A stretch of DNA of 64,000 nt from Kofleriaceae bacterium (GTDB lineage: Bacteria > Myxococcota_A > Polyangia > Haliangiales > Haliangiaceae), in assembly GCA_041389925.1 (NCBI GenBank), contig JAWKQX010000006.1:279837-343836 (forward strand), read 5' to 3'. Each line of letters opens with the position of its first letter. Position 1 is the first letter of the stretch. Below the pieces are notes generated by a model. It did not search any database and had not been told where the DNA came from. It was given only the letters and a program-made list of their open reading frames with translations. The position numbers and the translations under genes were made by a program. Positions 5,457-52,317 of the stretch are shown one piece after another.

Positions 5457-6299
5457 ATGTCCAGTCCCTTGACCATTCGATTCTTTGGCGTGCGTGGCTC
5501 GGTCGCCACGCCGGGTGCGGCGTTCGCGGGCGTCGGCGGCAACACCGCCTGCGTCGAGGTCTCGGCCGGTGAGACGCGCATCGCGCTCGACGCCGGGACC
5601 GGGCTGCGCGCGCTCGGCGACGAGCGGATGCGCGCCGGGCTGCGCGAGCACACGATCCTGCTCTCCCACCTGCACTGGGATCACCTCCAGGGGCTGCCGT
5701 TCTTCACGCCGGTGTACGTCCCGGGGCACCGGGTGAACATCCTCTCGGGGCCGACCGGCGCGAAGCCGCTCACCGAGGCGCTGCCCTCGCTGTTCTCGGC
5801 GCCGTTCTTCCCGGTGGAGTTCGGCGTCGTCGCGGAGCAGATCACCCTCCGCGAGCTGCGGTCCTCGGAGCGCTTCACCGTTGGGGAGCTCTCGGTGACG
5901 ATGGCGCGGCTCAACCATCCGGATCCGGTCTACGGGTTTCGCCTCGAGGCCGGTGGGCGCTCGGTCGTGTACGCCACCGACACCGAGCACTACGCGTGCG
6001 TGGACCCGACGCTCGCGCGCCTCGCGGCCGACGCCGACGTGCTGATCTACGACTGCCAGTACGCACCGGAGGAGTACCCGACGCGGGTGGGGTGGGGCCA
6101 CTCGACGTGGCAGGCCGGCGTGGAGCTCGCGCGGGCGGCGCGCGTCTCGCAGCTCGTGTTGTTCCACCATGATCCGATGCGCACCGACGAGCAGGTCGCG
6201 GAGCTGGAGCGTCACGCGCGCGCCGCGTTCCCCGGCGCGATCGCCGCGCGAGAGGGGTTGGTGCTGGTCCCCGGAGAGGCGGAGCGTGTCGCCGCCTGA
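5457..6299 (+). CDS. MBL-fold metallo-hydrolase (beta-lactamase superfamily)
   Basis: '[17 protein letters not shown]' HxHxDH motif plus downstream His/Asp ligands. 280 aa. Confidence 0.8.
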
Positions 6300-33984: not shown

Positions 33985-35472
33985 AGGTGGGCCGTGGCCG
34001 CCGTGGGACTCCGGGCCGAGCGGGGGCGCGGGCGGCGCGGCCGACTCGACGAGCACGACGCCCTCCCCCGTGCACTCCACGCAGACGTCGACGAACGGAT
34101 CCTGCGGCCCGGGCATCACCGCGCGCGGTACCACCCGGCCGATCCAGCCCGCGAGCGCGCGCGCGTGGACGACCATGGTGCCCGAGGCGGGGAGCTTGAT
34201 CGAGGTCAGCGCGCCGACGGTGCGGAACGCGACCGCGCCGTCGCCGCGGAACTGCACGACCGGCACCTTGCCGCGCAGCCCCGGGATGTGTCCGTTCTCC
34301 CAGCGAAGCGTGCTGGAGAACGCGAAGACCCTCTCTTCGCGCAGGTAGAGGATATCGTCGTCGAGATAGACGGCGGTGAAGCGCCCGCCCTCGGGGAAGG
34401 CCACCAGGTAGCCCTGTCCGCTGATCGCGGAGAGCGGATCGCCGCCGTGGTCGAAGCGGTCCTGCGAGTTGGTGCCGCGAGATCTGCGATAGGCGGGGTC
34501 GCGCTGGAGCGCGCCGCCGGCGGCGTACACGCCGCTCATGCGGCAGTACACGCGATCCGTCACCCGCACGACCAGCGCGCCGCTCGGGCTGACCTCGAAG
34601 GCGTGGTCGCCTTCGTCGGGGCGGACCAGCGCGTGCGTGGCCAGCTCGGAGAGCGGCTGCGGTGGCGAGTGCCCGGTGCTCACCTTGGTGCCGGCCTCGC
34701 GGCCCGAGGTCGCCGGCGAGGCGCTCGCGACCGCGCGCGTGATCGCGCCGCCATCGGGCGCTTGCTTCGGCACCGCCTCGGAGGGGCTCGGCGCAGGGCG
34801 CGCGCCGCTGTGGCTCTCCGGCGCCTGGGTGACGAAGCGCTGCGACGGCGAGGCGGTCGCGGGGCGGCGGACGACCCCGCCCATGCCGATGTTGCGCTCG
34901 GTGCGGCGCTCCTTGGGCCCCGCGGGCCGTCGGCCGGCGGGCGCGGCGGTCGCGGGTGCGGGCTCCGCGGGCGCGCCGCCCAGCTTGAGCAACACCCGGC
35001 TGCGCTCTTCGTCGGCGAGGTTCGGCTCGATCTCCATCGCGAGCTCGCCCTGGCCGGCGATCAGGAAGGCCTCGTAGGCGTCGGCGTAGCGCCCGGCGCG
35101 CGCGTACGCCAGGCCGAGGTAGTTGACGGCGCGGCCCTGGCTGGGATCGAGCCCGCGGCTGGCCTCCAGCGCCTCGATCGCTCCTTCGGTGTCTCCCAGC
35201 TTGAGGCGGACGAGCCCCAGGTTGAGACGGTGCGAGGCGTCGGTCGGCAGGCGGGCGCAGAGCTCCTCGTAGATCGGCCGCGCATCGGTGAACTGGTTCG
35301 CGCGGAAGTAGGACAGGCCGAGCAGCGCGAGCGCGCGCACGTTCTCCGGATCGACCTGAAGTGCGGCGAGGAAGGTGCGCTGCGCCTCGAGGAGGTTGCC
35401 GGCGCGCAGGAACTCGTTGCCGCTGACGATCGCGCGCTCGAACGCCTCGTGGGCCGCGGGGCTAGGCGGCAT
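33979..35472 (-). CDS. TPR-repeat protein with C-terminal AIM24-like (DUF124-type) beta domain
   Basis: N-terminal TPRs ('ALALLGLSYFRANQFTDARPIYEEL'). Central Pro/Ala-rich linker. C-terminal 'GYLVAFPEGGRFTAVYLDDDILYLRE...VVHARALAGW' resembles the AIM24 family. This assignment is tentative. Confidence 0.55.
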   Translation of the reverse strand: MPPSPAAHEAFERAIVSGNEFLRAGNLLEAQRTFLAALQVDPENVRALALLGLSYFRANQFTDARPIYEELCARLPTDASHRLNLGLVRLKLGDTEGAIEALEASRGLDPSQGRAVNYLGLAYARAGRYADAYEAFLIAGQGELAMEIEPNLADEERSRVLLKLGGAPAEPAPATAAPAGRRPAGPKERRTERNIGMGGVVRRPATASPSQRFVTQAPESHSGARPAPSPSEAVPKQAPDGGAITRAVASASPATSGREAGTKVSTGHSPPQPLSELATHALVRPDEGDHAFEVSPSGALVVRVTDRVYCRMSGVYAAGGALQRDPAYRRSRGTNSQDRFDHGGDPLSAISGQGYLVAFPEGGRFTAVYLDDDILYLREERVFAFSSTLRWENGHIPGLRGKVPVVQFRGDGAVAFRTVGALTSIKLPASGTMVVHARALAGWIGRVVPRAVMPGPQDPFVDVCVECTGEGVVLVESAAPPAPPLGPESHGGHGPPA

Positions 35473-35634
35473 GCGGCCCCGAGCGGCGCGGCCCGGCTGC
35501 GCTCATCGCGCCGGTCGGAAGACGGAGGGACAGGACGACGTGCGGACAAGCTCCCACCGCGCCATTACACCTCAAATTCGCCGCCGCTGCACCGATCTGG
35601 TGGGGATTGCGTCGCGCGGCGTGGCTCCGCGCGG

Positions 35635-38601
35635 TCAGGGCCGCGCGACGCGCAGCGCCCCACGCGGCGAGAGCTCCACGATGATCGCGCCGCCGAGATC
35701 GGTGCGCAGCACGCGGGCGCCGCCGCGCTGCCACCGGCTCACCACGTCGAGGTCGGGGAAGCCGAAGCGGTTGCCGCGGCCGCACGAGATGACGGCGAGC
35801 TCGGCGCCGGTCGCGGCGAGCAGCCCCGGCGTCGACGAGGTCGGGCTGCCGTGGTGCGGCACCTTGACGACGTCGGCGCGGAGCCGCCCGGAGGCGGCCT
35901 CGACGAGGACGTCCTCGCCCTCCAGCTCGAGGTCGCCGAGGAAGAGCGCGCGCCGCCCGGCGTACGCCACCATCGCCACGGCGGAGTTGTCGTTGATCGA
36001 GCGGACCGGGTCGGCGGCGAGCTGCGTCGCGGCGTCGCGGCTGGGCTGGTAGCGCGGCGCCAGCAAGGAGAGGCGCGCTCCTTCGGCGCTGCGCCGCCCC
36101 AGCGGCGGCGGCGCGCGCACGACCGTGCCGGCGCGGCGGAGCTCGGCGACCACGTGCGCGAAGCTCGGCGCGGCGCGCGCGTCGCTCGCGGGCCGCCGCG
36201 GCGCCTCATCGAGGAAGCCGGGCGGGATCCACAGCTCACCGATCGGGACGCGCCCCGCCAGCGCGAGCAGCCCGAGGTAGTGGTCCGGGTGCGGGTGCGA
36301 GATGACCGCGACGTCGATGCGGCGGCGACGCGCGAGCTCCAGGTACGAGGCGATCGCGCGGCCGGGCGCGGCGGCGCCTTCTGGGGTCTTCGCGCCCGGC
36401 GCGCCGCCTGCGTCGATCAACCACAGCTCGGTGCGCGTCTCGACCAGCGCGGCGTCGCCCTGACCGACGTCGAAGAAGGTGACGCGGACGCCGTCGGGCG
36501 CGGGCAGCGGCGCCGCGAGCCACAGCGCGCACACCGCGGCCCACGCGCTCACCTCGAGCCAGCGCCGGCGCGGACGCGCGCACAGCGCGGTCCCGAGCGC
36601 CCACAGCCCGGTCGCGACCCACGGCGAGGCGATCGCGACGACGCCGACCGGGCACAGCGGCGCCAGGCGCGCCGCGACGGCGTCGGCGAAGGTGAGGATC
36701 GCCGCGGCCAGCTCGAGGAGCGCGGCGCCGAGCCCCGCCGACAGCTCGCCGAGGGACAGCCCCAGGAGCCCCAGCGGCAGGGCCGCCAGCTCGACGAGCG
36801 GTGTGACGAGCGCGTTGCCCAGCACCCCGCCCGGCTGCACCTGATGGAAGTGATAGGCGGTGATCGGCGCGGTCGCCAGGGTCAGCCACGCCGAGGTGGT
36901 GGCGGCGCGCGCGAAGTACGCCAGCGCGCGTCCGCGCCAGGTCCGCGCGCTCGTCTTCGGGCGACCTGCCTGGGCGATGAGCGCCAGCGCCGCTGCGAAG
37001 GAGAGCTGGAAGGACGGCTCCCAGAGCTGACCAGGCGCCCACGCCAGGAGCAGGACCGAGGCGAGCGCGAGCGCGTCGAGCAGGCGCAGCGGGCGGCCCA
37101 GCGCGGCGGCCATCATCCAGAGGAGCGCGAGCACGAGCGCGCGCAGCGTGGCGATCTGCGCTCCGGTCAGCATCGTGTAGCCGATCGCGAGCAGCGCCGC
37201 CGGGCCGGCGGCGAGCGCGGCGGGGTCGGTGCGGGTACCCAGCGCGGCGGCGGCTCGACGCAGCCCGGAGAACACGAGCAGCGCGACGACGGCGAGGTGC
37301 AGCCCGCTGACGCTCAGCACGTGGTAGATGCCGATCGCGCGCCAGCGCTCGTTGAGCTCCTCCGGCACGTCGGCGCGGACGCCGAGGGTGACGCCGGCGA
37401 GCACGGCGCGCGCGGCTGCGTCGGTGTCGGCGGTTGCGGCGGTCGCGCCTGGGGGGGCGACGACGGTGGCGGTCGTGGGTGCGTCGTCGGGGGGCGCTGC
37501 ATCGTTGGCGACGGTGGCAGTGGCGGGTGCGGTGGCGGAGGCGGAGGCGGGCGCCGCGACGGAGGCGGTAGCTGGTGCGGCGACGGTATCGGTGGCGGGT
37601 GCGGTGGCGGCGACGGAGGCGGAGGCGGTGGCGGCGACGGAGGCGGTGGCGGAGGCGGGTGCGGTGGCGGCGACGGTGGCGGTAGCGGGTGCGGCGACGG
37701 TGGCGGTGGCGGCGACGGCGACGGCGACGGTGGCGGTAGCGGGTGCGGTGGCGGAGGCGGTGGCGGTGGCGGGTGCGGTGGCGGAGGCGGTGGCGGTGGC
37801 GGTAGCGGGTGCGGTGGCGGGTGCGGTAGCGGGTGCGGCGACGGTGGCGGTAGCGGGTGCGGTGGCGGTGGCGGCGGCGGTGGCGGCGACGGAGGCGGCT
37901 GCGGGTGCGGCGACGGTGGCGGGAGCGGCGACGGCGTCGGCGTCGGTGGCGGGAGCGTCGTCGGCGATGCGCGTGATCCGCGCGAGCCAGCGCGCACGCA
38001 GCCGAGCGACGCCGCGCCACGCCGTCAAGCGCACGTCGCGGTCCCGGCCGAGCACCTCGAGCTCCTCCGCGGTGAGCTCGCCGGTGATGCCCTCGGCGCG
38101 GAGCGAGGCGGCGCGATCAGGGCTGCCTGGGTTGCGGGCGCCTCGCGGGGGCCGCAGGCGCCCGGTGAGGCGGACCTCGTCGCCGGGCCAGGCCGTCACC
38201 GGCGCGCGGACGCGCAGCGCGCCGACGGCGGTCTCGACGACGAGGCCGTAGTCGCCGGCGCGCCGGGGCTCCGCCGGACGCGTGACGACGCCGCGCAGCT
38301 CCACTGCAGCGCGGGGCGCGGGCGGCTCGTCGGCGTTCCTCGAGCGCTCGGCCGGACCGCGCACGCCGTAGGCGAGCGCGCCGAGGGTGAGCGCCGCGAG
38401 GCCCCACGCCAGGCGCTGCGCGGCGCGGCGCCCGCTGCGGCGCGCGGCGACGGGGAGGAAGGCGGCGATGAGCGCGGCGGCGAGCGCGCAGAGCGGCGCG
38501 CCCACGCCGCGCCCGGCGAGGACGCCGAGCGCGAAGGCCACCGCGAGCTGGGGAGGGCTCGGGAGCGCCTCGCGAGGAGAGCGGGCGGGGGAGGCGGGCA
38601 T
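35635..38601 (-). CDS. comEC: DNA internalization-related competence protein ComEC/Rec2 with C-terminal MBL domain. Contains an about 180-aa Ala/Thr/Pro low-complexity insertion.
   Basis: Competence domain TM helices. C-terminal 'VTFFDVGQGDAALVE...ISHPHPDHYLGLL...HHGSPTSS' MBL motifs. ATG 38601. Insertion 'ATAPATATVAAPATAPATAPATATATASATAP...' is encoded by repeats at 37430-37990. Confidence 0.85.
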   Translation of the reverse strand: MPASPARSPREALPSPPQLAVAFALGVLAGRGVGAPLCALAAALIAAFLPVAARRSGRRAAQRLAWGLAALTLGALAYGVRGPAERSRNADEPPAPRAAVELRGVVTRPAEPRRAGDYGLVVETAVGALRVRAPVTAWPGDEVRLTGRLRPPRGARNPGSPDRAASLRAEGITGELTAEELEVLGRDRDVRLTAWRGVARLRARWLARITRIADDAPATDADAVAAPATVAAPAAASVAATAAATATAPATATVAAPATAPATAPATATATASATAPATATASATAPATATVAVAVAATATVAAPATATVAATAPASATASVAATASASVAATAPATDTVAAPATASVAAPASASATAPATATVANDAAPPDDAPTTATVVAPPGATAATADTDAAARAVLAGVTLGVRADVPEELNERWRAIGIYHVLSVSGLHLAVVALLVFSGLRRAAAALGTRTDPAALAAGPAALLAIGYTMLTGAQIATLRALVLALLWMMAAALGRPLRLLDALALASVLLLAWAPGQLWEPSFQLSFAAALALIAQAGRPKTSARTWRGRALAYFARAATTSAWLTLATAPITAYHFHQVQPGGVLGNALVTPLVELAALPLGLLGLSLGELSAGLGAALLELAAAILTFADAVAARLAPLCPVGVVAIASPWVATGLWALGTALCARPRRRWLEVSAWAAVCALWLAAPLPAPDGVRVTFFDVGQGDAALVETRTELWLIDAGGAPGAKTPEGAAAPGRAIASYLELARRRRIDVAVISHPHPDHYLGLLALAGRVPIGELWIPPGFLDEAPRRPASDARAAPSFAHVVAELRRAGTVVRAPPPLGRRSAEGARLSLLAPRYQPSRDAATQLAADPVRSINDNSAVAMVAYAGRRALFLGDLELEGEDVLVEAASGRLRADVVKVPHHGSPTSSTPGLLAATGAELAVISCGRGNRFGFPDLDVVSRWQRGGARVLRTDLGGAIIVELSPRGALRVARP
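37430..37990. repeat. GCGGTGGCGGAGGCG-type simple-sequence tract inside comEC, same repeat family as 32118-32362
   Basis: ...ggcggtggcggaggcgggtgcggtggcggcgacggtggcggtagcgggtgc... repeated about 35 times with variation. Confidence 0.85.
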
Positions 38602-38634
38602 CGCGCGGCTCTCGGCCGGGGGCGCCGGCGGTTG

Positions 38635-38800
38635 CGCGTCGTCGCGCGGTCCGCGGGCGAGCGTCTGCGGGCGCGAGCGGCGAGGCGTCGTCGCGCGGTC
38701 CGCGGGCGAGCGTCTGCGGGCGCGGGCGGCGAGGCGTCGTCGCGCGGTCCGCGGGCGAGCGCCGAAGGCGCCGGCTGCGTCGCCGCGCGGTCCGCGCACC
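38635..38800. repeat. Tandem direct repeat, 50-bp unit x about 3.3, in the intergenic region just upstream of comEC
   Basis: gcgtcgtcgcgcggtccgcgggcgagcgtctgcgggcgcgRgcggcgag at 38635, 38685 and 38735 (third copy diverges after 28 bp, with a partial fourth). Confidence 0.9.
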
Positions 38801-38820
38801 GCGCCAGAGGTCGGCGGAGG

Positions 38821-40749
38821 TCAGCGCATCAGGTCGCGCAGCAGCTTCATCGGCGGCGCGCCGTAGCTCAGCACGCGGTCGTGATAGGCGCGCTCGGAGA
38901 AGCCCGGGGCCTGCTCCGCGCTGGCGCGCAGCTTCATGAACTCCGCGAAGCCGTAGTAGTACGTGGTGAGCTGCGCGCTCGACAGGCGCGCGCGCTTCCA
39001 CTTGCCGACCGCCTCGCCCTCTTCCTGGAAGGCCTCGCCTTGCATCAGCGCGAGCGCTTGCTTCTCGTCCATCTGGCCGGCGTGGATCTCATGGTCCAGG
39101 ATCGCGTTGGCGCACAGCCGCAGCACCATCTTCTGGCGCTGCAGCCGGACCTTGGGGCCGCCCATGCCGTACTTGGCGAGCAGCCACTCGCCGTACACCG
39201 CCCAGCCCTCGACGAACGGGCCGCTCGAGTAGAGTGCCCGCAGCTTCGAGGGGAAGCGGTTGTTGTGCATCGCCTGCAGGAAGTGACCGGGCATCGCCTC
39301 GTGGATGGTCAGCTCCACGAGCATGCTGCGGTTGTACTCCTTGTAGAACGAGGCGACCCGGGCCTTGTCCCAGTCCTTCGGCGTCGGGGCGATCGCGTAG
39401 TACGTCTCCGGCTTCTGCTCGAACGGCCCGGACGAGTCGCAGTACGCCACCGCCACGCCGCGGCGGTACTCCGGCATCTCGATCACCGCGCACGGTTCGT
39501 CCGGGACGCGGACGAGGTCGCGCTCACGCACGAACGCGGTGACGCGGTCCAGCATCTGGCGCGCCTCGGCCACGATCGTCGCGTTGGTGGGGCGGTCGGT
39601 GGCGACCTCGTCGAGCACGCGCTTGACCAGCGCGCGCTTGGCGGCCGGGGTGTCGTGCCGCGGCGGGCGCGCGCCGCGGAACAAGGTGGGCCACAGCTCC
39701 AGTGAGGTGGCCACCATCTCCTCGCGCGTGGCGGCGAGCAGCGCCCGAGCGCCGGCGGCGACCTCGTCGATGTCGACGTCATCGCCGAGCTCGTAGCGCA
39801 GCTTCTGCTCGAAGCGGGCGCGGCCCAGGCGGAAGTCGCCGTCGCTGCGCGGCGCGAGCTCCTGCTCGAAGAAGGTGATCAGCTCGCCGAGCGCGGCGCT
39901 GGCGATCGCCGCGGCGGCCTCGACCTCGGCGCGCTGCGCCGGCGCCTTGGCCAGCGCGTCCTCGAGGCCGTGCGTGGTGACCTCCAGCAGGCCGCGCGCC
40001 TGCGCGATCGCGGTCTCCGTGAAGATCTTCGGCGGGCGCGCCAGGCGCGCGCGCGCCGCGGCGACCACCGCCGGGATGCCCCGCAGGCGCGCGGCCAGGT
40101 TCGTCATGCGCTCCTCGATCGGCGCGAAGTCGCGGGTCAGCAGCGGGTCGAGCCCATCGCCGAGCAGGCCTACGTACGCCAGCGGGTTCCGCTCGAGCGG
40201 GCGCAGCTCGTCGATGGTGAACAGGGCGTAGGCGAGCTGCTTTTGCAGGATCTGGCGATCCACGCGGTTGGTCTCGTCGAGCTCGGCCTCATCGAACGCC
40301 GCCACCGCGGCCTGCGTCTCGGCGTAGAGCGCGCGGAGCTTGGCCGTGCCCTCGACGCTCACGTCCGGCCAGCGGCCGTCATGGCGGTGCTCGCCCGCCT
40401 GCGTGGCCTGTCCCGGCTCCAGCGCGAACAGGTCCCGGAGGTAGCGCTCGGTGAGGTCGCGGAAGCGCTGGTTTGCGTCCGGCGCCGACGGCGCCGCGGC
40501 GCTGCCGGTGGCCTCGGCGGCGGTGCGGGCGACCGGGCTCGCGGGTGGCTGGCTCGCGGACGAGCAAGCGAGCAGCGCGCCGGCGAGCAGCGCGGCCCGC
40601 GCGGCGGTCGGGAGGCGAGGGCGGGACGAGGATGATCGAGGGAGGGGCGCGTTCACCCCCCGGGTGTACCGCACCTGGCCGGCGGCGCGGCGCTCGTCGC
40701 GCGAACCTGGCCGGGCCGCGCCGCACCGCGCTGCGCTGCGCCACGCCAC
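38821..40749 (-). CDS. DUF885-family protein (putative lipoprotein/metallopeptidase-like)
   Basis: '[13 protein letters not shown]' matches the DUF885 HExxPGHH motif. Lipobox 'LLAGALLAC'. Start uncertain because of a long pre-signal region. Confidence 0.65.
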
Positions 40750-44541: not shown

Positions 44542-45177
44542 ATGTTCATGTCAAAGATCCTCCCGTTCCAGCCGCCCGATCCCGCCTTGCGCGACGCCAC
44601 CGAGTCCTTGCCCGGGCCGCTTCGCGACGTGGTCGAGCTGTTTCGCGGCCAGCTCGTCGCGGTGTCCTTCCCCGACGTCGACGCCGAGGTGCTGCTCCGC
44701 GGCGCCGAGGAGGTCGCCGCGCGTCGGCGCGCGGTGGACGAGGCCCGCGAGCAGCTCGATCACGCGACGACGGCGCTGGCGGCCGAGCTCCAGCAGCTCA
44801 CGACGCTGGCGGAGCGCGGCCTCGCGTACGCTCGCATCTACGCGGCGGCGCACCCGGAGCACGCCGCGCTCACCGCGGGGCTCGCGCAGCTCGAGGTGGA
44901 CAGCGCGGCCCTCGGCGCTGGGGCGGTCCCGCGGCGCGGCCGTCGGCGCGCGGCGCGTCCCGAGCTGCCGTTCGCGGCTTCGTCGGACGCCGTGGAGGAC
45001 GAGGCGCTCCTCGCCGACCGCGTCGCGCCCGCGCCGGCGGACGAGGCGCCGGCGGAGCCCGTCGAGGCCGTCGCGTCTGCGGTCAGCTCCGTCGCGCCTG
45101 CGCCGGCAGACGAGGCGCTACCGATCGCGCCCGTCGCTAGCCCGGCTTCGCCGCGCGCGCGTCGTCACGCTCGGTGA
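44542..45177 (+). CDS. Hypothetical protein (Ala/Pro-rich C-terminus)
   Basis: ATG 44542 or 44548. Coding-like GC3. No motif. Confidence 0.4.
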   Translation: MFMSKILPFQPPDPALRDATESLPGPLRDVVELFRGQLVAVSFPDVDAEVLLRGAEEVAARRRAVDEAREQLDHATTALAAELQQLTTLAERGLAYARIYAAAHPEHAALTAGLAQLEVDSAALGAGAVPRRGRRRAARPELPFAASSDAVEDEALLADRVAPAPADEAPAEPVEAVASAVSSVAPAPADEALPIAPVASPASPRARRHAR

Positions 45178-46366
45178 GGCGTCGGCCCAGCGCGACCATC
45201 GGCGCCTCGAGGAGGTGGTACGCGGCGACGGCCGCGGCCGCGGAGAGCGCGAAGAACGCGAGCACCGACACCGCCACCGAGCCGGGCTGCCAGAGATCGT
45301 AGACGACGTACAGGCACGGCACGTGGAGCAGGTAGAGGCCGTACGAGTATGTGGCGACCTTCTGCGCGACGTGGTTCGGGCCGGCGAGATCGCAGTCGGA
45401 GAAGAGGTGGATCGACAGGCCCAGGAGGAGCGCGTAGAGCCAGCCCAGCCAGTACACCAACCCGCCCCGATCCAGCTGCAGGTAGCAGTAGCCGAGCACC
45501 ATCGCGACGACGAAGATCGGCCACGCGCGCCCGGGGAGCCGCCGCCGCGTGCGGTGGCGCAGCGCGTAGGAGAGCACGCCGGCCAGGAAGCACGGCACGT
45601 AGCCCGCGAGGTTCATGTGCCCGCCGTCGAGCTTGTACAGCGCGTAGGCGCCGAAGTACGAGCCCACCAGCGCGCCGCCGATGAGCTCCGCGCCCCGCTG
45701 CCGCCGCGCGAGCAGGAACAGCGCCGGCAGCACGACGTACATCTCCACCTCGTACGGCAAGCTCCAGAGCGGCACCAGCACGCTCTGCCCGGTGAAGAGG
45801 TTCTGCACGAGCAGGAGGTTGGCCGCGATGACCGAGGGCGTCGGCGAGGTGGGGGCGCGCCAGGTCGCGTCGGGGAGCCCGGCGAGGAGCACCAAGGCGA
45901 TGCACGCGATCGCCAGCGGGTAGATGCGAAACGCGCGGCGGAGGTAGAACCTCGCGGGGACGCCGTCCGCGCGCTGCGCCCGCATCCGCTCCAGGGAGTG
46001 CATCAGCACGAGGCTGGTGTGGACGAAGAACGCGAGCACGCCCGCGTGGCCAATGTTCTCGGTCAGCTCGCGCAGGAGCAGGGGGACGGGGACGCCGTGG
46101 TACACCAGCGTCGGCACCAGGTGATCGATCAGCACCGTCAGCACCGCGACGGATCTCAGGTGATCGAGGTTCGCGACGTTCGTGCTCCCCCTCACGTCAC
46201 GAGCTCCCAGCCCTCCCCGCGGTCGCCGGCCGAGCGCCGCGCCGCGACCTCCGGCGAGCGAGAACGACCTTGAACCGTCTGCGGGGACGTTGCGGGAGAC
46301 CAGGCCGCCACGTGCGCAGTATCGGACATCGGCGCGCGGCGCAGGAGCACGGCGCGCCGATTTCAC
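45137..46366 (-). CDS. Acyltransferase family 3 (OafA-like) integral membrane protein
   Basis: 'LRSVAVLTVLIDHL', 'AFFVHTSLVLMHSLERM' and 'FRIYPLAIACIAL' motifs. The true start is probably an internal GTG near 46198. Confidence 0.7.
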   Translation of the reverse strand: MKSARRAPAPRADVRYCARGGLVSRNVPADGSRSFSLAGGRGAALGRRPRGGLGARDVRGSTNVANLDHLRSVAVLTVLIDHLVPTLVYHGVPVPLLLRELTENIGHAGVLAFFVHTSLVLMHSLERMRAQRADGVPARFYLRRAFRIYPLAIACIALVLLAGLPDATWRAPTSPTPSVIAANLLLVQNLFTGQSVLVPLWSLPYEVEMYVVLPALFLLARRQRGAELIGGALVGSYFGAYALYKLDGGHMNLAGYVPCFLAGVLSYALRHRTRRRLPGRAWPIFVVAMVLGYCYLQLDRGGLVYWLGWLYALLLGLSIHLFSDCDLAGPNHVAQKVATYSYGLYLLHVPCLYVVYDLWQPGSVAVSVLAFFALSAAAAVAAYHLLEAPMVALGRRLTERDDARAAKPG

Positions 46367-46384: not shown

Positions 46385-47680
46385 TCAGACGAGGACCTCG
46401 ACCTCGTCGAACCCCGCGGTGAGCTGGTTGTCGATCTCTCGGCTCGCGGCCACCTCCTCCAGGCAGCGGCGCAGCTCCGGGATGGCGGCGAGCAGGCGCT
46501 CGACGTACTCCTGCGCCAGGAACAACACGGTCGCGTGCTCGACCGCCGTCACCGTCGCGGTGGTCACGCCGCCGCGCAGCAGGGCGATCTCGCCGAACAC
46601 GTCGCCGATCGACAGCGCGCCGAGCTCGACGACTCGGTCCCCGACGCAGCGCGACGCCTCGAGCTGACCGGAGAGCACGACGAACAGGCCGCGGCCGGGC
46701 TCGCCCTCTCCGATGATCACCGCCCCGGGCGTCACGTCGTGGCTGGTGAACCGGCGCAGGAGCTCGCGCCGCTGACCGCTGTCGAGCGCGCGGAACAGCG
46801 GGCTCGAGACCATGACGTTGCTGAGCAGGCGATCGCGGGTGAAGTGGTGCAGCGCGAGCGCGACCCCCTCGATGTTCTGCGCCAGCGCGGCCAGCGAGCT
46901 GCGGCCGAGCTCCAGGAGATCGACCTCGCCGACCGCCCGCGCCGTGGCGGACCGCGGGCGCGCGGTCAAGAGCGCCATCTCGCCGAAGATCGCGTTCTCG
47001 CCCAGCCGGGCGAGCTCCTGCGTCGCCCCGCCGGCCTCGCGGGTGATCGCCACCTCGCCAGAGGCCACGAAGAAGAACGACGAGCCCTCGTCGCCCTGGC
47101 GAAACACCAGCGCGTCGGAGGGCAGTCGTCGCAGCAGCACGGTGTCGAGCACCCTGCGGAGGGCGCTCTCGGAGAGCTCCGAGAGCAGCGGGATCGGGTG
47201 CAGCGCCTCGGGCCACTGCGCGAAGGCGTCGGTCGCGTGCACCGCGCGTGTGGCGGCCTGGGCGAGCGCCGCCGGCGAAGGCTCGCGCTGGAGCTCGGGC
47301 GCGGGGATCTCCGTCGAGGGTGCGGGGCTGGCGACGCGCGCGGCGAGCTTCCCCAGCTTGCCGGAGCCCTGGCCGTACGTGGCGACGAGGCCCTCCACGA
47401 GCCCGCTCGCGTCGCGGCCGTGCGCCTGCAGCAAGCGGGCGCACACCACCGCGGCGAGGGGGTGCCCCGAGCGCAGCGCGTAGCCGTGGACGGCGCGGTA
47501 GATCGGCTCCGCCGCGTCGAGGTCGCCGAGCTGCAGCAGGCAGTCCGCGACGCGGGTGCGGGCCTCGAAGTCGAGCGGCGCCGCCGCGACGATCGCGTCG
47601 TAGAGCTGCACCGCCACCTCGGGGTGCCCCGCGCTGTACTGGCGCGCAGCGGCCTCGCGCAGCTCCGACAACTTCGGCAT
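46385..47680 (-). CDS. Protein with N-terminal TPR-like region and two cyclic-nucleotide-binding (cNMP) domains
   Basis: Two copies of 'F..GE.AL.....R.ATV.A' ('FGEMALLTARPRSATARAV' and 'FGEIALLRGGVTTATVTAV'). ATG 47680. Confidence 0.75.
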   Translation of the reverse strand: MPKLSELREAAARQYSAGHPEVAVQLYDAIVAAAPLDFEARTRVADCLLQLGDLDAAEPIYRAVHGYALRSGHPLAAVVCARLLQAHGRDASGLVEGLVATYGQGSGKLGKLAARVASPAPSTEIPAPELQREPSPAALAQAATRAVHATDAFAQWPEALHPIPLLSELSESALRRVLDTVLLRRLPSDALVFRQGDEGSSFFFVASGEVAITREAGGATQELARLGENAIFGEMALLTARPRSATARAVGEVDLLELGRSSLAALAQNIEGVALALHHFTRDRLLSNVMVSSPLFRALDSGQRRELLRRFTSHDVTPGAVIIGEGEPGRGLFVVLSGQLEASRCVGDRVVELGALSIGDVFGEIALLRGGVTTATVTAVEHATVLFLAQEYVERLLAAIPELRRCLEEVAASREIDNQLTAGFDEVEVLV

Positions 47681-47828
47681 CCGTCTACGGTAGCCCATTC
47701 CCGAGTGGGCGACCGCTCGGTGCCAACTGCAGTGCGCAGTCGCGTACGCGGGCACAACGTTGTTCGCGCGGGAGAACCCACCTATACTCGACGCACTTCG
47801 CGGCGAGTCGAGCGCGAAAAGGGGCCCA

Positions 47829-49628
47829 GTGAAAAAATGCGTTCAATGCACGAAAGATCTCCCCGACGCCGCTCATCATTGCGTGTTCTGCGGCTCTAAG
47901 CAGCCCGCGCAGGCGCCCGCGGAGATCGCCCGCACGGTGATGGGCTACTCCGCCAACCAAGTCCGCGACCACGCCGCCGCCGCCGCGGCGATGGCCCCTC
48001 GTCATCCGCCGAGCGCGCCGCCGCCGATGGGCGGCCCTGCGGTGGGGCCGGCGATGTCGGCGGGGCGGCACCCGCCGAGCGCGCCGCCGCCGATGGGCGG
48101 CCCCGCGGCGGGGCCGGCGATGTCGGCGGGGCGGCACCCGCCGACCGCGCCGCCGCCGATGGGCGGCCCCGCGGCAGGGCCCGCGATGTCGGCGGGACGT
48201 CATCCGCCGACCGCGCCGCCGCCGATGGGCGGCCCCGCGGCAGGGCCCGCGATGTCGGCGGGACGTCATCCGCCGAGCGCGCCGCCGCCGATGGGCGGCC
48301 CTCCGAACCCGGCGTTCGGCGGGCCCGGCTTCGGCGGCCCCGGTGCGCCGGGCGGCTATCCGGCTGCCCCGAGCGCGCCCGCGTTCCCACCTCCGGCCGC
48401 GGCGAACGCCGCGACGATGTTCGCGCCGTCGAGCGGCGGCCCTGGGCCGCAGCCGCAGTCCCCCGCCGCCGGGGGCAGCGCGGCGTCCCCGGCGCCGCTG
48501 GCCGCGACGATGGCCGCGCCGCTGCCCGTGTTCCCCGCCAGCACGGCAGGGGCGTATCAGGCGCAGCCGTCGGGGCCCTCGGGGTATCCGCCTGCGGGCG
48601 CCTCGTATCAAGCCGGCGCGTACCACGCGCAGGGCGGTGGCTACGGCGCCCCCGGCGGCGGTGGCTACGGCGCGCCCGGCGGCGGTGGCTACGGCGCCCC
48701 CGGCGGCGGTGGCTACGGCGCGCCCGGCGGCGGTGGCTACGGCGCCCCCGCGGGAGGCTACGGCGCCCCCGGCTACGCGTCTGGACCGTCGACGCCGATG
48801 CACCAGCCGGCGTACCTGGCCTCGGAGACCGCGGATCGCGCCGCGCGCCCGATCGACCCTTACCGCGATGGCCTGCGCCTGGTGCTCTTCGCGTTCGGCA
48901 TCCTGCTCCTCGGCGCGTTTTGCACCCCGCTGTCCAACGATCTCACCTTCCACTGGAACGTCGTGATCGACGCACCCACCACCGCGAAGGTCGCGTCCCT
49001 GCTGCTCGCCGTCGTCGGGGCGCTCTCGATCATCCTGGCCTCGACGCCGCTCGCCAGTCCGCTCCGCGGCGGCCTGGCCGCCGGGCTCGGGCTGCTCGGC
49101 CTCATCGCGCCGCTGGCCTTGGCGAAGGTCTCCGAGTGGCGGCTGCTCGTCGCCGCCTTGGTGCCCATGCTCCTGATCCCCGGGTTGCTCCTGCGCCAGG
49201 AGTATCGCGAGCAGCTCCTGCCGCGCCTCTTGGCCACGCTCGGCGTGCTCGGCGCGCTGGCGATCTGGCTCGTGCCGAGCGGCGACGCGCTGCCGCTCGT
49301 CGCGACGGTCAAGGCGGTCGTCGACGCCAGCGGCGTCGGGAAGGTCCCGCACCTGCTGGAGCTCGTGCACCTGGTGGTCATCGTGCTCTGCCTGCTGGTC
49401 TGGCTCCCCGCACCCTCGGGCGCCGGCGCCAAGCTCCTGGCCTGGCTGCTCATCTTCTGGGCCGCGCTGATGCACTTCCAGATGCTGATCCTCTCGGAGA
49501 ACCTGGGGGAGCAGCTCAAGGCGACGCCCTTCGATAGCGCGATGTCCTGGGCGCCGGGCGTCGCGTACCTCGCGCTCCTCGGCTACGGCCTCGCGGCGGC
49601 GCTCGGCAAGCAGCTCGAGACCGCATGA
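47829..49628 (+). CDS. Zinc-ribbon protein with Pro-rich 20-aa repeats (x5), GGGYGAP repeats (x5) and a C-terminal multi-pass TM domain
   Basis: GTG 47829 in an AT-rich context (gtg aaa aaa tgc gtt caa tgc acg aaa gat). 'CVQCTKDL...HHCVFCG'. DNA repeats: 60-bp x5 at 47990-48300 and 15-bp x5 at 48640-48760. About 6 hydrophobic helices C-terminally. Confidence 0.65.
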   Translation: MKKCVQCTKDLPDAAHHCVFCGSKQPAQAPAEIARTVMGYSANQVRDHAAAAAAMAPRHPPSAPPPMGGPAVGPAMSAGRHPPSAPPPMGGPAAGPAMSAGRHPPTAPPPMGGPAAGPAMSAGRHPPTAPPPMGGPAAGPAMSAGRHPPSAPPPMGGPPNPAFGGPGFGGPGAPGGYPAAPSAPAFPPPAAANAATMFAPSSGGPGPQPQSPAAGGSAASPAPLAATMAAPLPVFPASTAGAYQAQPSGPSGYPPAGASYQAGAYHAQGGGYGAPGGGGYGAPGGGGYGAPGGGGYGAPGGGGYGAPAGGYGAPGYASGPSTPMHQPAYLASETADRAARPIDPYRDGLRLVLFAFGILLLGAFCTPLSNDLTFHWNVVIDAPTTAKVASLLLAVVGALSIILASTPLASPLRGGLAAGLGLLGLIAPLALAKVSEWRLLVAALVPMLLIPGLLLRQEYREQLLPRLLATLGVLGALAIWLVPSGDALPLVATVKAVVDASGVGKVPHLLELVHLVVIVLCLLVWLPAPSGAGAKLLAWLLIFWAALMHFQMLILSENLGEQLKATPFDSAMSWAPGVAYLALLGYGLAAALGKQLETA

Positions 49629-50290
49629 CGCGCGGCCGCGAGGTCGTCGTCGGCACGAGCGCGCTCGGACGGCCGATCGAGGCGGTGTGCTTCGCCGCGC
49701 CGAGCTACGCGCGGCCGCGCCCGCCGGCGCTGTTGTTCGGCGCGATCCACGGAGATGAGCCTGCGAGCGCCATGATGCTGGAGCGCCTCGCCGACGAGCT
49801 GGTGGAGCGTCCACCCGGACGCGAGACCTGGATCATCCCGTGCGTGAACCCCGATGGCGTGCTCGCGGGCAGCAAGAACAACGCGCGCGACGTGGACCTC
49901 AACCGCAACTTCGCGGCGAAGAACTGGTCGGCTGCGTACGCCGCCGGGTACAACCCCGGCGCGGCCCCGGAAGATCAGCCCGAGACGCGGGCGCTCGTCG
50001 AGCTGATCGCCAGCGTCGGCGCCGAGCGGCTCATCGCCGTGCACGCGACCTTCCGCGTGGTCAACTGGGACGGCGCGGGGCGCGGGCTCGCGGAGGAGAT
50101 GGCCGCGCGCTGCGGCTATCCGGCGAGCGGCGACCTCGGCTACCCCACGCCCGGGTCCTTCGGCTCCAAGTACGGCGTCGACCTCGGCCTGGAGGTGATC
50201 ACCCTCGAGGTGCCCTACCTGGACGTCGATGAGCGCGCGTGGACGGAGACGCGCTCCGCGCTGCGCTGGACCGTCGATCTGCCGGCGTAG
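49625..50290 (+). CDS. M14-family zinc carboxypeptidase-like protein (MpaA/gamma-D-Glu-DAP amidase-like), translationally coupled
   Basis: ATGA overlap with the upstream stop. 'HGDEPAS' HxxE zinc ligands. 'NRNF' motif. 221 aa. Confidence 0.6.
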   Translation: MTRGREVVVGTSALGRPIEAVCFAAPSYARPRPPALLFGAIHGDEPASAMMLERLADELVERPPGRETWIIPCVNPDGVLAGSKNNARDVDLNRNFAAKNWSAAYAAGYNPGAAPEDQPETRALVELIASVGAERLIAVHATFRVVNWDGAGRGLAEEMAARCGYPASGDLGYPTPGSFGSKYGVDLGLEVITLEVPYLDVDERAWTETRSALRWTVDLPA

Positions 50291-50306: not shown

Positions 50307-51587
50307 CTACCAGCCCGCGTACTGCATCAGCCAGAGCATCGCCAGCGACGCCGCCAGGCACGGCACCGTGACCTTGGCGCCGATGATGATGAAGCGGCGG
50401 ATCGACAGGCCGATGCCATGGCGCCGCAGCATCGAGATCCACATCAAGCCGGCGAGCGAGCCGATCGGCGCGAGGCGCGGGCCGAGGTCCCCGCCGATGA
50501 GCCCGGCCAGCACCAGGTGCATGTCGCCCCCGGCGCGCTCCGCGGCGAGGGTGCCGAGCATCGCCATCGGGTGGTTGTTGATCGTCGCGGCGCCCAGCGC
50601 CGACACCACCCCCACCGTCGGCAGCGCGGTGGCGCCGTCGTGGTAGAGCCTGGCGAGCACGTCGACCACGCCGGCCCTGGCGAGGCCGCTCGCGAGCAAG
50701 AGCACGGCCGCGAGCAGCGGGAGCAGGTCCCAGCTCACGTCGCGGCTGATCGAGCGCGCGGCCTCTCGGCGCCCCGCAGGCGCGGTCACGCCGAGCGCCG
50801 CGACCACGCCGACGCTGGCGCCTGCGGCCGCGACGGCCCAGAGCGGTCCGTCGAGGAACGAGATGATCGGGTAGGCCAGCATCACGCCGGCCATCGCGAT
50901 CAGCATGAGCAGCCCGCCGGTGCCGAGGCGCGCGCGGGCCTCCGGCCACGCGCCGATCGCGGGCGCCTCATCCTCCAGCTCGGCGGCGAACTCGCGGGCC
51001 AGGAAGTAGTACGCGATGAGCCAGCCCACGAGCGCGATCGGGATCATGCGCAGCGCGTAGGCGTTGAACGCGATGCCGGCGTGGCTCGCCACCACCACGT
51101 TCATCGGGTTCGAGGTCACCAGCGGCGCGACGCCGGCGGCGTAGAACACCGCGAAGGAGAACGCGAGGGTGAACTTGCCGTGGCGGCGCGGGTACACGGT
51201 GCGCAAGAGCGCGATGACGGTCGGCGTGAGCACCAGGATCGCCGCGTCGTTGGACAACAGCGACGCGGTGAGCGCCGAGAGCGCGAACACCACCGCGAAC
51301 GCGCGCCGCACCGGTCCGCGCGTGTACGGCTCGACGACCTCCGCGAACACCGAGAAGAGCCCCACGTGGCGGGCGCAGGCGGTCATCAACATGACGGAGG
51401 TGATGGTCACCAGCGGTCGCCACATCACCGACACCGTCGTGGTGACGTCCGCGGCGGTGATGAGCCCGCCGGCCGCGAGCACGGCGGCGCCGCACGCCGC
51501 GCCGACCACCGCGTGGAGGCGGTGGGTCCATCCCAGGGTGATCCCGAGCATGACCGCGAGCCCGGTCGCCGACAACGCGATGTTCAC
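50307..51587 (-). CDS. ArsB/NhaD-superfamily permease (arsenite/anion transporter-like)
   Basis: Alignable by eye to the ArsB N-terminus ('[17 protein letters not shown]' vs ArsB 'ANDGAALILTPIVIAML'). Start set at the GTG that matches the ArsB N-terminus; the upstream ORF extension overlaps the cyclophilin gene. Confidence 0.65.
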
Positions 51588-51798
51588 CGCGGCCAGGATA
51601 CGACGGATGCTCGGTCGACTGGCCGCGAAGGCGCCGCAAAGGGCCCCGCGGAGACGCGCGGCGCGCGTCGCAGGCGTCGGGCTGGTCGCGCCGTGCTCGG
51701 ACGACGCGGCGCGCCTCGCTGACACGCTCCACGGCCGCGGCGTTTCAGCGCGCGCCGATCCGACGCAAGGTGACGGGCTCTGTGGTAGGAATGCGGCC

Positions 51799-52317
51799 AT
51801 GGCCAATCCGACCGCGACCTTCGAGACCTCGCTGGGGACCTTCACCGCGGAGATCTTCCTCGAGCAGATGCCGACCACCGCGACCAACTTCATCAAGCTG
51901 GCGCAGTCTGGCTTCTACAACGGGCTGCACTTCCACCGCGTGATCCAGGGCTTCATGGTGCAGTTCGGCTGTGAGCACTCCAAGGATCCGAACAGCGGTC
52001 GCTGCGGCACGGGTGGCTCGCCGCTGGGGCGCATCCAGGACGAGCACCCGCCCGCGCACAAGATCTCCAACCAGCCGGGCACGCTGTCGATGGCGAACAC
52101 CGGTCAGCCCAACTCGGGCGGCGCGCAGTTCTTCATCAACACCGTCGACAACGCGCGCCTCGACTGGTTCACGCCGGGCCCGTCCAAGCACCCGGTGTTC
52201 GGCAAGGTGATCTCGGGGATGGACGTGGTGACCAAGATCGAGACCACGCCCACCGGCGGACAAGATCGCCCCAAGACGCCGGTGAAGATGATCCAGGTGA
52301 CCATCTCCGGCGTCTGA
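51799..52317 (+). CDS. ppiB: Peptidyl-prolyl cis-trans isomerase, cyclophilin type
   Basis: '[13 protein letters not shown]', '[17 protein letters not shown]' and 'HPVFGKV' are cyclophilin signatures. Confidence 0.9.

Follow-up and report, generated by a model that had tools for sequence, protein, structure and literature searches.

The locus analysed here lies in a 64,000-nucleotide stretch of DNA (the window) from a Kofleriaceae MAG (Myxococcota, Haliangiales), and about 100 related loci were compared with it. It comprises three genes, which ORFs and gene calls place where the initial annotation had located them. On the minus strand, 46385..47680 encodes a 431-aa protein with a TPR-like segment and two cyclic-nucleotide-binding (CNB) domains, supported by its ORF and by Pfam and PDB matches. 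A divergent intergenic region of 148 bp (47681..47828), carrying the promoter of the plus-strand operon, separates it from an ORF for a 599-aa protein (47829..49628, plus strand) with a zinc ribbon, a tether predicted to be disordered and eight transmembrane (TM) helices. The third gene (49625..50290, plus strand; ORF, Pfam, NCBIfam and PDB support) encodes an M14 peptidase of 221 aa, and its ATG overlaps the TGA of the membrane gene in an ATGA, as described initially. The ORF of the cNMP gene is readable back to 47755; orthologs and independent gene calls begin at the ATG at 47680, the exact 431-aa product is called in two independent assemblies, and the orthologs share this start Met. The membrane gene begins at the GTG first quoted for it, in agreement with the V/M-KKC start of its orthologs.

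An AAGGGG Shine-Dalgarno-like run lies 5' of this GTG, preceded by the operon promoter with a −35 TTGTTC (47760-47765) and, after a 17-nt spacer, a −10 TATACT (47783-47788). An equivalent TTTGCA-N17-TATA[GC]T pair, at 8 or more of 12 matches, occurs in 71 of 86 orthologous upstream regions compared with 29 of 430 shuffles. On this sequence conservation, the hexamer previously flagged only as −10-like is identified as the −10 of a promoter conserved across the membrane-protein family. The generic promoter scan did not call TTGTTC-N17-TATACT owing to its weak −35 match. The AT-rich start pointed out earlier is also real: the first 33 nt of the membrane gene have a GC content of 0.39 against about 0.72 locally, with a family median of 0.52.

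The membrane protein matched no Pfam, NCBIfam or PADLOC model and no PDB fold, whether of a transporter or of any other whole domain. Its family comprises at least 320 clusters (50% identity, E<=1e-3); the database copies are all named 'hypothetical protein', and P0016 is this protein called from a wrong start. Members share a skeleton of a Cys4 ribbon, a KTVMGY motif, several A-T-M-F-type motifs, an 8-TM bundle and a ...GKQLE end. The ribbon, CVQCTKDLPDAAHHCVFCG (47838..47894, plus strand), is supported by the family alignment and by AF2 (pLDDT ~90): C4, C7, C18, C21 and G22 are invariant among 40 diverse members, and the Cys4 pattern is found in 86/86 full-length members, in accordance with the N-terminal zinc ribbon originally proposed. 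Matches to Pfam DZR and Zn_Ribbon_1 were below threshold only. The linear motif ARTVMGY follows (47928..47948, plus strand), of a KT[VM][ML]GY type present in 85 of the 86 members, and then a short helix (residues 42-54 in the AF2 model).

The tether, rich in Pro, Ala, Gly, Gln and Tyr, is predicted to be disordered (AF2 pLDDT 38-55) and ranges from 140 to 364 aa across the family, with lineage-specific repeats. In the window, TRF detected two tandem arrays, both far above chance. The Pro-rich array (48006..48301, plus strand) has 4.5 copies of a 66-bp unit encoding the 22-aa PPSAPPPMGGPAAGPAMSAGRH (score 494, 96% matches), and the GY array (48633..48773, plus strand) has about six copies of a 24-bp unit encoding the 8-aa GGGGYGAP (score 240, 92% matches), in two alternating variants. 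Both arrays had been noticed initially, with incorrect dimensions (five 60-bp, 20-aa Pro-rich repeats and five 15-bp GY repeats). The Pro-rich consensus written out in the initial annotation was itself 22 residues long. A recent expansion, in line with the suggestion made there, is supported because identity among the repeat units reaches 96-100%, other repeats occupy the same positions in relatives with 60-69% identity in the TM domain (NNSGGGYG, NNSPQGGY or SPMGGGMG at that of the GY array), and one locus, L024, has a single-copy 'RHPPTAPPPM' precursor at the position of the Pro-rich array. Many family members have no repeats. Two short-read assemblies made independently (SRR28338158 and SRR28338160) match the window at 100% identity; both break off some 25-30 nt inside the first 66-bp unit (~48029 and ~48035), and the SRR28338158 assembly restarts at 48721, within the 24-bp array. 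Since both match the window and break or resume inside the arrays, the repeats are real and not the assembly artefacts against which a check had been advised; the copy numbers given are those of the window's own assembly alone.

Between the arrays lie the conserved mid-tether motif AATMFA (48408..48425, plus strand), of an A[APK]TMFV type present in 73/86 members, and AATMAAP (48501..48521, plus strand), a third copy of this motif type that is kept as A[AKR]TMAAP within the window's clade. T[MV][FMA] motifs are 6-fold enriched, with 2.26 per tether versus 0.37 in shuffles. Because this low-complexity region sits between a signal-less Cys4 ribbon and TM1, it is probably cytoplasmic and not surface-exposed.

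A conserved pre-membrane segment, PAYLASETADRAARPIDPY (48807..48863, plus strand), has the family consensus PPYLASQTAxRxxRPI(D/E)P(W/Y), and the simple patterns PPY[LM] and RP[ILV][DE]P[WYF] occur in 53 and 57 of 86 members, respectively. The helical domain that follows (48864..49625, plus strand), with its conserved, putatively cytoplasmic tail ...GKQLE(+TA), had been recognised as a membrane domain of six helices; the confident AF2 model (pLDDT 87-98) has eight long hydrophobic ones, probably arranged as a 4+4 bundle. Conservation within the helices falls on Gly, Pro, Trp and Leu, plus a single polar invariant, and conserved charged residues are found in short loops (PRG, LRxEYR..LPR, WLPAPS..GAK and GKQLE). 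These loops would be cytoplasmic under an N-in topology, which is suggested by the lack of a signal peptide, by the Cys4 ribbon and by a positive-inside bias of modest size.

The downstream protein is an M14-type metallopeptidase, as first annotated (Pfam Peptidase_M14, 60.4 bits), and the same sequence occurs as P0163 in a Kofleriaceae MAG. Its best NCBIfam match is MpaA (107.9 bits), and it is colinear over its full length with the PDB structures of MpaA 5hxd (E 4.9e-23) and 4axv (E 1.4e-12). No signal peptide was found in its sequence. On the plus strand, HGDE (49748-59) is conserved in 70/70 orthologs, DLNRNF (49895-912) and GSFG (50150-67) in 68/70, and the His motif (50036-53) and LEVP (50204-15) in 68-70/70. 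By these sequence criteria, the protein is a full-length, signal-less homolog of MpaA, the gamma-D-Glu-meso-Dap murein tripeptide amidase, with every catalytic motif intact; its score falls under the NCBIfam equivalog cut-off of 157, so the tripeptide is only its putative substrate. MpaA is a cytoplasmic carboxypeptidase/amidase whose substrate is the free murein tripeptide (PMC9527704, PMC11980594).

In the divergently encoded protein, the two cNMP_binding domains reported initially score 134.9 bits in Pfam, and the top PDB matches are the tandem CNBs of PKA and PKG regulatory proteins (5j3u, E 1.2e-20). The phosphate-binding cassette of CNB-A, FGEMALLTARPRSATA (46940..46987, minus strand), has the canonical Glu and Arg, within a FGEMALLxAxPR[ST]A stretch common to all aligned orthologs. 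That of CNB-B, FGEIALLRGGVTTATV (46550..46597, minus strand), retains the Glu and has Thr in the column of the phosphate-binding Arg of PKA R (5j3u), both here and in 13/13 aligned orthologs. The conserved Arg/Glu cassette, whose loss had been named as evidence against cNMP binding, is therefore complete in CNB-A and reduced to its Glu in CNB-B. The description as a TPR protein is less secure: in the segment at 47492..47641 (minus strand), kept in orthologs, TPR_19 barely exceeds its Pfam cut-off (25.9 against 25 bits) and TPR_16 falls under it (29.5 against 32.7). The conserved TPR-like N-terminal region spans about 150 aa, which qualifies the earlier statement that no effector domain is present.

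Adjacency was assessed in 14 GTDB species genomes and 80 metagenome loci. Wherever the flank is long enough (~90 loci), the M14 gene is found 0-100 nt 3' of the membrane gene without exception, the pair is kept down to 32% TM-domain identity, and the junctions are overlapping or near-overlapping stop and start codons. The cNMP gene, which encodes a cAMP-receptor-like protein, is divergent in ~85% of loci, mostly 9-165 nt away as measured between tblastn hit edges, and is not adjacent in about nine, where the tether motifs persist; its link to the unit is looser than that of the peptidase. M14 identities of 61-82%, compared with 32-68% for the membrane partner, indicate that the peptidase evolves much more slowly. 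Flanking genes vary, with S8/PTPS at some loci and AcylT3/ArsB or Metallophos at others. This is an order-specific conserved gene unit of Haliangiales/Kofleriaceae. It appears not to have been described previously, as had been supposed: the membrane protein matches no family, and a literature search found no paper joining the relevant terms.

We tentatively propose that the membrane protein is a scaffold facing the cytoplasm, expressed together with a murein-peptide amidase, and that cNMP-linked control of the two is probable. Its 8-TM bundle would anchor the membrane protein in the inner membrane, with the ribbon and the 140-364-aa tether in the cytoplasm, and its role would be that of a scaffold, not of a transporter or enzyme. 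A scaffold is preferred to a transporter because no family or transporter fold was matched, and because the conserved TM residues are Gly, Pro, Trp and Leu, with charges in the loops. The ribbon, the several short A-T-M-F-type motifs and the invariant ...GKQLE end would be protein-docking sites, and the variable repeats would merely set tether length and valency. A precedent is the membrane protein GltJ of M. xanthus, whose cytoplasmic N-terminal zinc ribbon works with a linker motif as a switch for protein binding (PMC11135422). Together with the cytoplasmic MpaA-like amidase, to which it is tightly or translationally coupled, the scaffold may act in cell-wall peptide turnover on the cytoplasmic side of the membrane, and the TPR-like/CNB/CNB protein, whose cNMP site is canonical in CNB-A and degenerate in CNB-B, would be a probable cNMP-dependent regulator or binding partner. 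We infer the topology, the scaffold role, the amidase substrate and any association with the cNMP protein, be it physical or regulatory. Several points weigh against this proposal. The tether motifs have low pLDDT, and AF2 hints at no docking onto the ribbon or TM domain; the link of the membrane protein to peptidoglycan is indirect; the rate gap is what would be expected of a housekeeping enzyme merely sharing an operon; and the cNMP gene is missing at some loci that retain the tether motifs.

A dedicated uptake system (MppA/Opp) supplies the MpaA pathway, and this would accord with the 8-TM domain being an unrecognised permease for murein-derived or other gamma-glutamyl peptides that feeds the amidase, with the ribbon and tether as a regulatory appendage. 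Strict operon coupling to a cytoplasmic peptide amidase and a possible 4+4 internal repeat, frequent among transporters, also fit; we regard a permease as unlikely. Similarly doubtful is an operon shared without a direct mechanistic link, in which the M14 protein is the lineage's housekeeping MpaA and the membrane protein an unrelated cytoplasmic-face organiser. A GltJ/ZitP-like polar or envelope scaffold and a membrane-anchored condensate are examples of such organisers. The very different evolutionary rates of the two genes, the recruitment of proteins by ZnR-linker-TM switches during gliding motility (PMC11135422) and the suitability of Tyr/Gly/Gln/Pro-rich multivalent tethers with repeated motifs for a hub or condensate all agree with this, but adjacency in all ~90 loci, despite changing flanks and TM identities as low as 32%, does not, and the start/stop overlaps point to selection for co-translation.

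The initial annotation had envisaged a cNMP-responsive regulator controlling a low-complexity 'sticky' membrane protein whose repeats are cleaved by the dedicated M14 enzyme. The unit is indeed conserved, CNB-A is canonical, and the tether and peptidase, both predicted to be cytoplasmic, could meet. However, M14/MpaA enzymes act at the free C-terminus of small substrates (PMC9527704) and, being exopeptidases, would not cut internal repeats; the repeats are also wholly different among close relatives and absent from many members, an ill fit for an enzyme that recognises them and is 61-82% identical throughout. With the tether probably not extracellular either, we consider such processing very improbable. 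Hardly credible is a cNMP-based anti-phage system of the Pycsar type, in which the CNB protein would be the sensor and the membrane protein the effector: PADLOC Pycsar-effector models do match (E ~1e-16), but only in the CNB domains, neither a TIR nor a TM effector is fused to the CNB protein, the neighbouring genes that were examined include no cyclase, and vertical inheritance, a fixed position order-wide and the 61-82% M14 identity are unlike patchy defence islands.

Compared with known systems, the likeness to Pycsar CNB-domain effectors is confined to a cNMP-binding domain matching PADLOC models; here there is no fused effector domain, no cyclase was seen, and conservation is vertical and order-wide. 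The PKA regulatory subunit shares tandem CNB-A/CNB-B domains alignable throughout (5j3u, 1rgs and others), a non-CNB protein-interaction region N-terminal to them and the lack of an enzymatic or DNA-binding domain, whereas the protein here has a TPR-like N-terminus in place of the dimerisation/docking helix bundle, lacks the phosphate-binding Arg of CNB-B in all orthologs and has no evident kinase partner. The peptidase resembles MpaA of E. coli (5HXD) and Vibrio (4AXV) in size (~220-240 aa), cytoplasmic location, whole-length colinearity, HxxE and His zinc ligands, NRNF substrate-binding motif, GY-TPGSFGS and catalytic Glu; it differs in its score under the equivalog cut-off, which leaves its substrate putative, and in its constant coupling to a zinc-ribbon/tether/8-TM gene, a context unreported for MpaA. 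With GltJ of the M. xanthus gliding machinery and the related ZitP, the membrane protein has in common a cytoplasmic N-terminal Cys4 ribbon, a motif-bearing disordered linker and a membrane anchor. It has no GYF domain, and its ribbon matched neither the MJ0042-type NCBIfam model nor Pfam ribbon models above threshold. Its anchor is an 8-TM bundle where theirs is a single-pass segment with a periplasmic domain, its tether is far longer and repeat-rich, and its partner gene encodes an M14 amidase.

The three genes studied here form a real, conserved and unannotated unit, and our literature search found no paper covering the locus. In the window, where the region has a GC content of about 72%, the gene for a 431-aa cNMP protein (46385–47680, minus strand) is divergent from a GTG-initiated gene for a 599-aa protein consisting of a zinc ribbon, a tether and an 8-TM domain (47829–49628, plus strand). 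The TGA stop codon of this second gene and the ATG start of a third, which encodes a 221-aa M14 protein (49625–50290, plus strand), overlap as ATGA. Pfam assigned the flanking genes to Acyl_transf_3 (45137–46366, minus strand) and to an ArsB/CitMHS-type permease (50307–51896, minus strand). Elsewhere in the window, a 1903-aa ORF (33994–39705, plus strand) has no Pfam family and is overlapped by an opposite-strand 1054-aa ORF (35635–38799); it may be a spurious high-GC ORF.

Gene context was compared using exact-protein look-ups, GTDB species genomes (14 loci), metagenomes (80 loci) and a tblastn analysis. All 14 GTDB loci come from Haliangiales, Kofleriaceae or 'Myxococcales' MAGs, Kofleriaceae being placed in Haliangiales, Polyangia, Myxococcota. 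The M14 gene lies 0–100 nt downstream of the membrane protein gene in every locus with enough flank, and its product shows 61–82% identity across loci versus 32–68% for the TM domain. The cNMP gene is divergent in most loci, with a gap of 9–165 nt between tblastn hit edges, and is absent beside about nine, in five of which a membrane-anchored subtilase (Peptidase_S8 + DUF5942) replaces it. Given the constant adjacency of the M14 gene and these absences, the invariant core is a two-gene operon, to which the cNMP gene is a common but non-essential addition. Most Haliangiales loci have the subtilase after the cNMP gene, and often a PTPS/QueD-like gene after that; the outer flanking genes vary by clade. 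The subtilase, found for example in the homologous loci L002 (4231–6084, minus strand), L004, L005, L010 and L011, among others, is anchored in the membrane at its N-terminus and carries a multi-TM DUF5942 domain at its C-terminus; the 64-kb window does not contain it.

The membrane protein represents a new family of a familiar architectural type, namely ribbon, tether and membrane anchor. The full protein matched no Pfam or NCBIfam model. With the TM domain as query, a word-indexed search retrieved 14 relatives, an exhaustive profile search yielded 320 clusters (50% identity) at E ≤ 1e-3 and 261 at E ≤ 1e-10, and a profile search of a larger database returned 62 proteins, all unnamed or labelled 'hypothetical protein', one of them from 'Haliangium sp.'. 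Start-codon miscalls shorten the N-termini of many database entries, including P0016, where the window's protein is annotated as starting from an internal GTG; the counts given below are based on 86 distinct full-length sequences re-derived from the loci.

The N-terminal Cys4 zinc ribbon proposed in the initial annotation was borne out, with CxxC-x10-HCxxCG present in 86/86 members, four invariant Cys, an AF2 pLDDT of about 90 and a family N-terminus of V/M-KKCxxCxKDLPDxAxHCVFCGxKQ. Curated models did not recognize it: DZR scored 17.3 against a required 27.3 bits and Zn_Ribbon_1 14.6 against 25, and neither the MJ0042 ribbon nor any other NCBIfam model matched. A KT[VM]MGY motif follows the ribbon in 85/86 members, A[APK]TMFV occurs mid-tether in 73/86, and the segment before TM1 has the family consensus PPYLASQTAxRxxRPI(D/E)P, simple patterns of its two halves being found in 53/86 and 57/86. 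An anti-sigma factor was considered and set aside: zinc-binding anti-sigma domains carry the motif HxxxCxxC, the ribbon reads CxxC...HCxxC, no Pfam family was assigned and the annotated neighbours include no sigma-factor domain. For the membrane domain, AF2 predicted eight long hydrophobic helices instead of the six first counted (pLDDT 87.4 and pTM 0.85 when modelled by itself; pLDDT 87–98 within the full-length model), and hhalign of its halves pointed weakly to a 4+4 duplication (probability 73%, E 3e-5).

The protein ends exactly in ...GK[QKN]LE in 70/86 members (49605–49625 in the window), and the window's clade adds one or two residues after LE (TA in the window; RA, PV, HA or HT elsewhere). 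Members differ by synonymous changes in the codons of the tail (GAG/GAA, CTC/CTG, CAG/CAA), and selection therefore acts at the protein level. This invariant free C-terminus directly adjoins a carboxypeptidase gene. We infer that the tether is cytoplasmic, since the protein lacks a signal peptide, a Cys4 site requires a reducing compartment and the Arg-rich pre-TM1 segment fits the positive-inside rule; with eight TM helices, the C-terminal tail would then also be cytoplasmic.

The tether is rich in Pro, Ala, Gly and Gln and spans 140–364 aa in the 86 members (median 186; 312 in the window), and residues 60–330 of the window's protein are predicted to be disordered (pLDDT 38–55, full-length AF2). 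Both tandem arrays described initially are real, although not as 60 bp x5 and 15 bp x5: the tandem-repeat scan identified a 66-bp unit repeated 4.5 times (48006–48301, plus strand; 96% matches, score 494), which encodes the 22-aa unit PPSAPPPMGGPAAGPAMSAGRH, and a 24-bp unit repeated about six times (48633–48773, plus strand; 92% matches, score 240), which encodes GGGGYGAP in two alternating variants. Whether the arrays are assembly artefacts was checked in two independent short-read assemblies, SRR28338158 and SRR28338160, which match the window exactly. Both stop about 25–30 nt into the opening unit of the 66-bp array, and that of SRR28338158 resumes within the 24-bp array; the repeats therefore exist, while their copy number is unconfirmed. 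Relatives with 60–69% TM-domain identity differ in the repeats that occupy these two tether sites: QQAYQPP x7 (locus L024), AAPAFSPPP x7 (locus L009) or APSYSPPA x6 (database protein P0290) at the first, and NNSGGGYG, NNSPQGGY or SPMGGGMG x3 at the second. L024 also holds a single-copy 'RHPPTAPPPM' that is precursor-like to the window's 22-mer. These differences between close relatives indicate that the window arrays are recent and lineage-specific and not conserved functional elements, in line with the very recent expansion first suggested.

Motifs of the T[MV][FMA] type occur 2.26 times per tether, compared with 0.37 in composition-matched shuffles. In full-length AF2, intramolecular docking of the tether motifs gave no confident contacts, the motif pLDDT being below 50. 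Loss of the motifs was looked for in loci without the cNMP gene, and they were retained, so this comparison gave no evidence for a link between motifs and cNMP protein. In the tethers of loci L019 and L092, the A-T-M motif lies inside a tandem repeat (GPGPGAAAFPPAATMPAPSAY x3), and expansion can thus multiply a putative docking motif, beyond a spacer. In locus L008 (about 5170–6000 of JADJJK010000001.1, a long-read MAG), the ribbon and TM domain are normal and the tether is an Arg-rich nonsense frame (RRWVRRPPRPRR...), probably produced by frameshift errors of that assembly in a low-complexity region.

Pfam agreed with the M14 assignment of the downstream gene (PF00246, 60.4 bits; gathering score 21.6). 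The 221-aa protein is 100% identical to a protein of a Kofleriaceae MAG, lacks a signal peptide and is colinear with MpaA structures from E. coli (5hxd, E 4.9e-23) and Vibrio (4axv), its HGDE, DLNRNF, AVH and LEVP aligning to the MpaA zinc ligands, N-R substrate anchor and catalytic Glu. HGDE, DLNRNF, GSFG and the catalytic Glu are kept in 68–70 of 70 distinct orthologs, and the distal His in at least 90%. The top NCBIfam match is also MpaA (PRK10602), covering profile positions 20–219 of 237, at 107.9 bits against an equivalog cut-off of 157, and JGI labels the orthologs 'protein MpaA'. Judged by its sequence, the protein is an ordinary MpaA-like amidase.

The cNMP protein is an ordinary tandem-CNB protein with one degenerate site. 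Pfam recovered both expected cNMP_binding domains (PF00027 in two stretches, 134.9 bits, above the gathering score), and the nearest solved structures are the tandem CNB-A/CNB-B of PKA/PKG regulatory subunits (5j3u, E 1.2e-20). The presence of the Arg/Glu cassette, on which the initial reading had been made to depend, held for one domain only: the CNB-A cassette is canonical (FGEMALLTARPRSATA in the window; FGEMALLxAxPR[ST]A in a 13-ortholog alignment), whereas that of CNB-B (FGE[MI][AS]LLRxxxT[TAS]ATV in the same alignment) retains the Glu and has Thr in place of the phosphate-binding Arg in the window and 13/13 orthologs. The N-terminal ~150 aa are conserved and weakly TPR-like (TPR_19 25.9 against a cut-off of 25; TPR_16 29.5 against 32.7; TPR_14 below cut-off).

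Upstream of the zinc-ribbon gene, the 'tatact' hexamer proved to be the -10 element of TTGTTC-N17-TATACT (47760–47788). The equivalent TTTGCA-N17-TATA[GC]T, at a score of at least 8/12, was present in 71/86 orthologous upstream regions versus 29/430 shuffles; generic promoter and terminator scans gave no matches, and the promoter was recovered solely by comparing these regions. The AT-rich gene start is likewise a family trait (GC 0.39 over 33 nt in the window; family median 0.52), and its nucleotides, GTGAAGAAATGCGCTAGCTGCACCAAGGA, are almost invariant family-wide. This near-identity covers the first ~33 nt (47829–47861 in the window), though the TM domains are 32–68% identical, and includes the rare A/T-ending codons AAA, GCT, GTT and CAA in a genome of 70% GC; possible reasons are a need for little mRNA structure at the gene start or a superimposed signal for the divergent gene. 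An RNA element was rejected, as an Rfam search of the leader and conserved 5' gene end gave no match at E ≤ 1 and the short GC-rich inverted repeats of the leader were indistinguishable from background. The leader (47787–47818) holds two overlapping 6-bp inverted repeats, CTCGAC/GTCGAG and TTCGCG/CGCGAA, the latter directly before an AAGGGG Shine-Dalgarno-like run and also present in the closest relatives (L008, L009 and L024). On the other strand, a conserved TANNNT-type hexamer (TACCGT, TACGGT, TACATT) lies 5–15 nt before the cNMP gene ATG in orthologous loci (47681–47700, minus strand, in the window, upstream of the ATG at 47680), a position suggesting that the mRNA has a very short leader or none. 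In one clade, where about 45 nt separate the two genes, it overlaps the opposite-strand -10 of the zinc-ribbon promoter.

What the unit does we infer from these features. They are consistent with a membrane scaffold that faces the cytoplasm and is co-expressed with an MpaA-like amidase, the cNMP receptor being a likely regulator or partner. There are two rival readings of the operon. The membrane protein could be a new type of permease supplying the amidase; its predicted fold had no PDB match and no whole-domain similarity to solved transporters, conservation within its helices falls on Gly, Pro, Trp and Leu, and conserved charges lie in short loops on the N-terminus side. Alternatively, the two genes may be co-expressed without any mechanistic link. 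The initial proposal of a 'sticky' protein whose repeats are cleaved by the peptidase finds poor support, the peptidase being there but of a class, M14, that consists of exopeptidases, and the repeats being neither conserved nor, on the predicted topology, extracellular. A Pycsar-like or other defence system is also poorly supported and was rejected: PADLOC did return matches, but these are confined to the CNB domains, with no TIR/TM effector fusion and no cyclase among the examined neighbours.

A more ambitious version of the scaffold reading, which we regard as improbable, would make the unit a bacterial counterpart of membrane-anchored second-messenger hubs (AKAP/PKA-R). The zinc-ribbon/tether/8-TM protein would be a multivalent, possibly condensate-forming, cytoplasmic scaffold whose repeated A-T-M-F motifs and strictly conserved ...GKQLE-COOH tail dock, or are processed by, the co-translated M14 protein and also dock the TPR-like domain of the PKA-R-like cNMP receptor, so that cAMP or cGMP would gate a membrane-tethered peptidase activity. 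In one version of this reading, the M14 protein would trim either the one or two residues that the window's clade has after ...LE or the final Glu, and would thus serve specifically to process the C-terminus of its partner membrane protein.

If the pairing is functional, it would show how one myxobacterial order links a cytoplasmic amidase for cell-wall peptides to the membrane, and perhaps also to cyclic-nucleotide signalling; we know of no membrane or cyclic-nucleotide link described for MpaA. The membrane protein also sets up a family that is sizeable (at least 320 clusters at 50% identity), lacks annotation and has an 8-TM fold predicted with confidence, and its tether offers a clean natural experiment in disordered-region evolution, in which a short-motif skeleton stayed fixed while lineage-specific tandem expansions repeatedly rebuilt the spacers. 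Except for one 'Haliangium sp.' record, the known carriers are uncultured MAGs, which limits practical impact until a tractable host is found.

Among known systems, MpaA acts in the cytoplasm, where it cleaves the gamma-D-Glu-meso-Dap bond of free murein tripeptide (PMC9527704, PMC11980594), and the window's M14 protein, colinear with it in sequence, scores below its NCBIfam equivalog cut-off. Pycsar combines a CNB sensor fused to a TIR/TM effector with a dedicated cyclase; here the CNB protein has no such fusion, and the neighbours examined include no cyclase. The nearest mechanistic precedent for the ribbon-tether membrane protein is GltJ of M. xanthus, whose zinc ribbon, N-terminal and cytoplasmic, forms a protein-binding switch together with a linker motif (PMC11135422). 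The GltJ class is, however, defined by a GYF domain, whereas the window protein has none (no Pfam family; residues 60–330 predicted to be disordered), and its ribbon matches no curated model.
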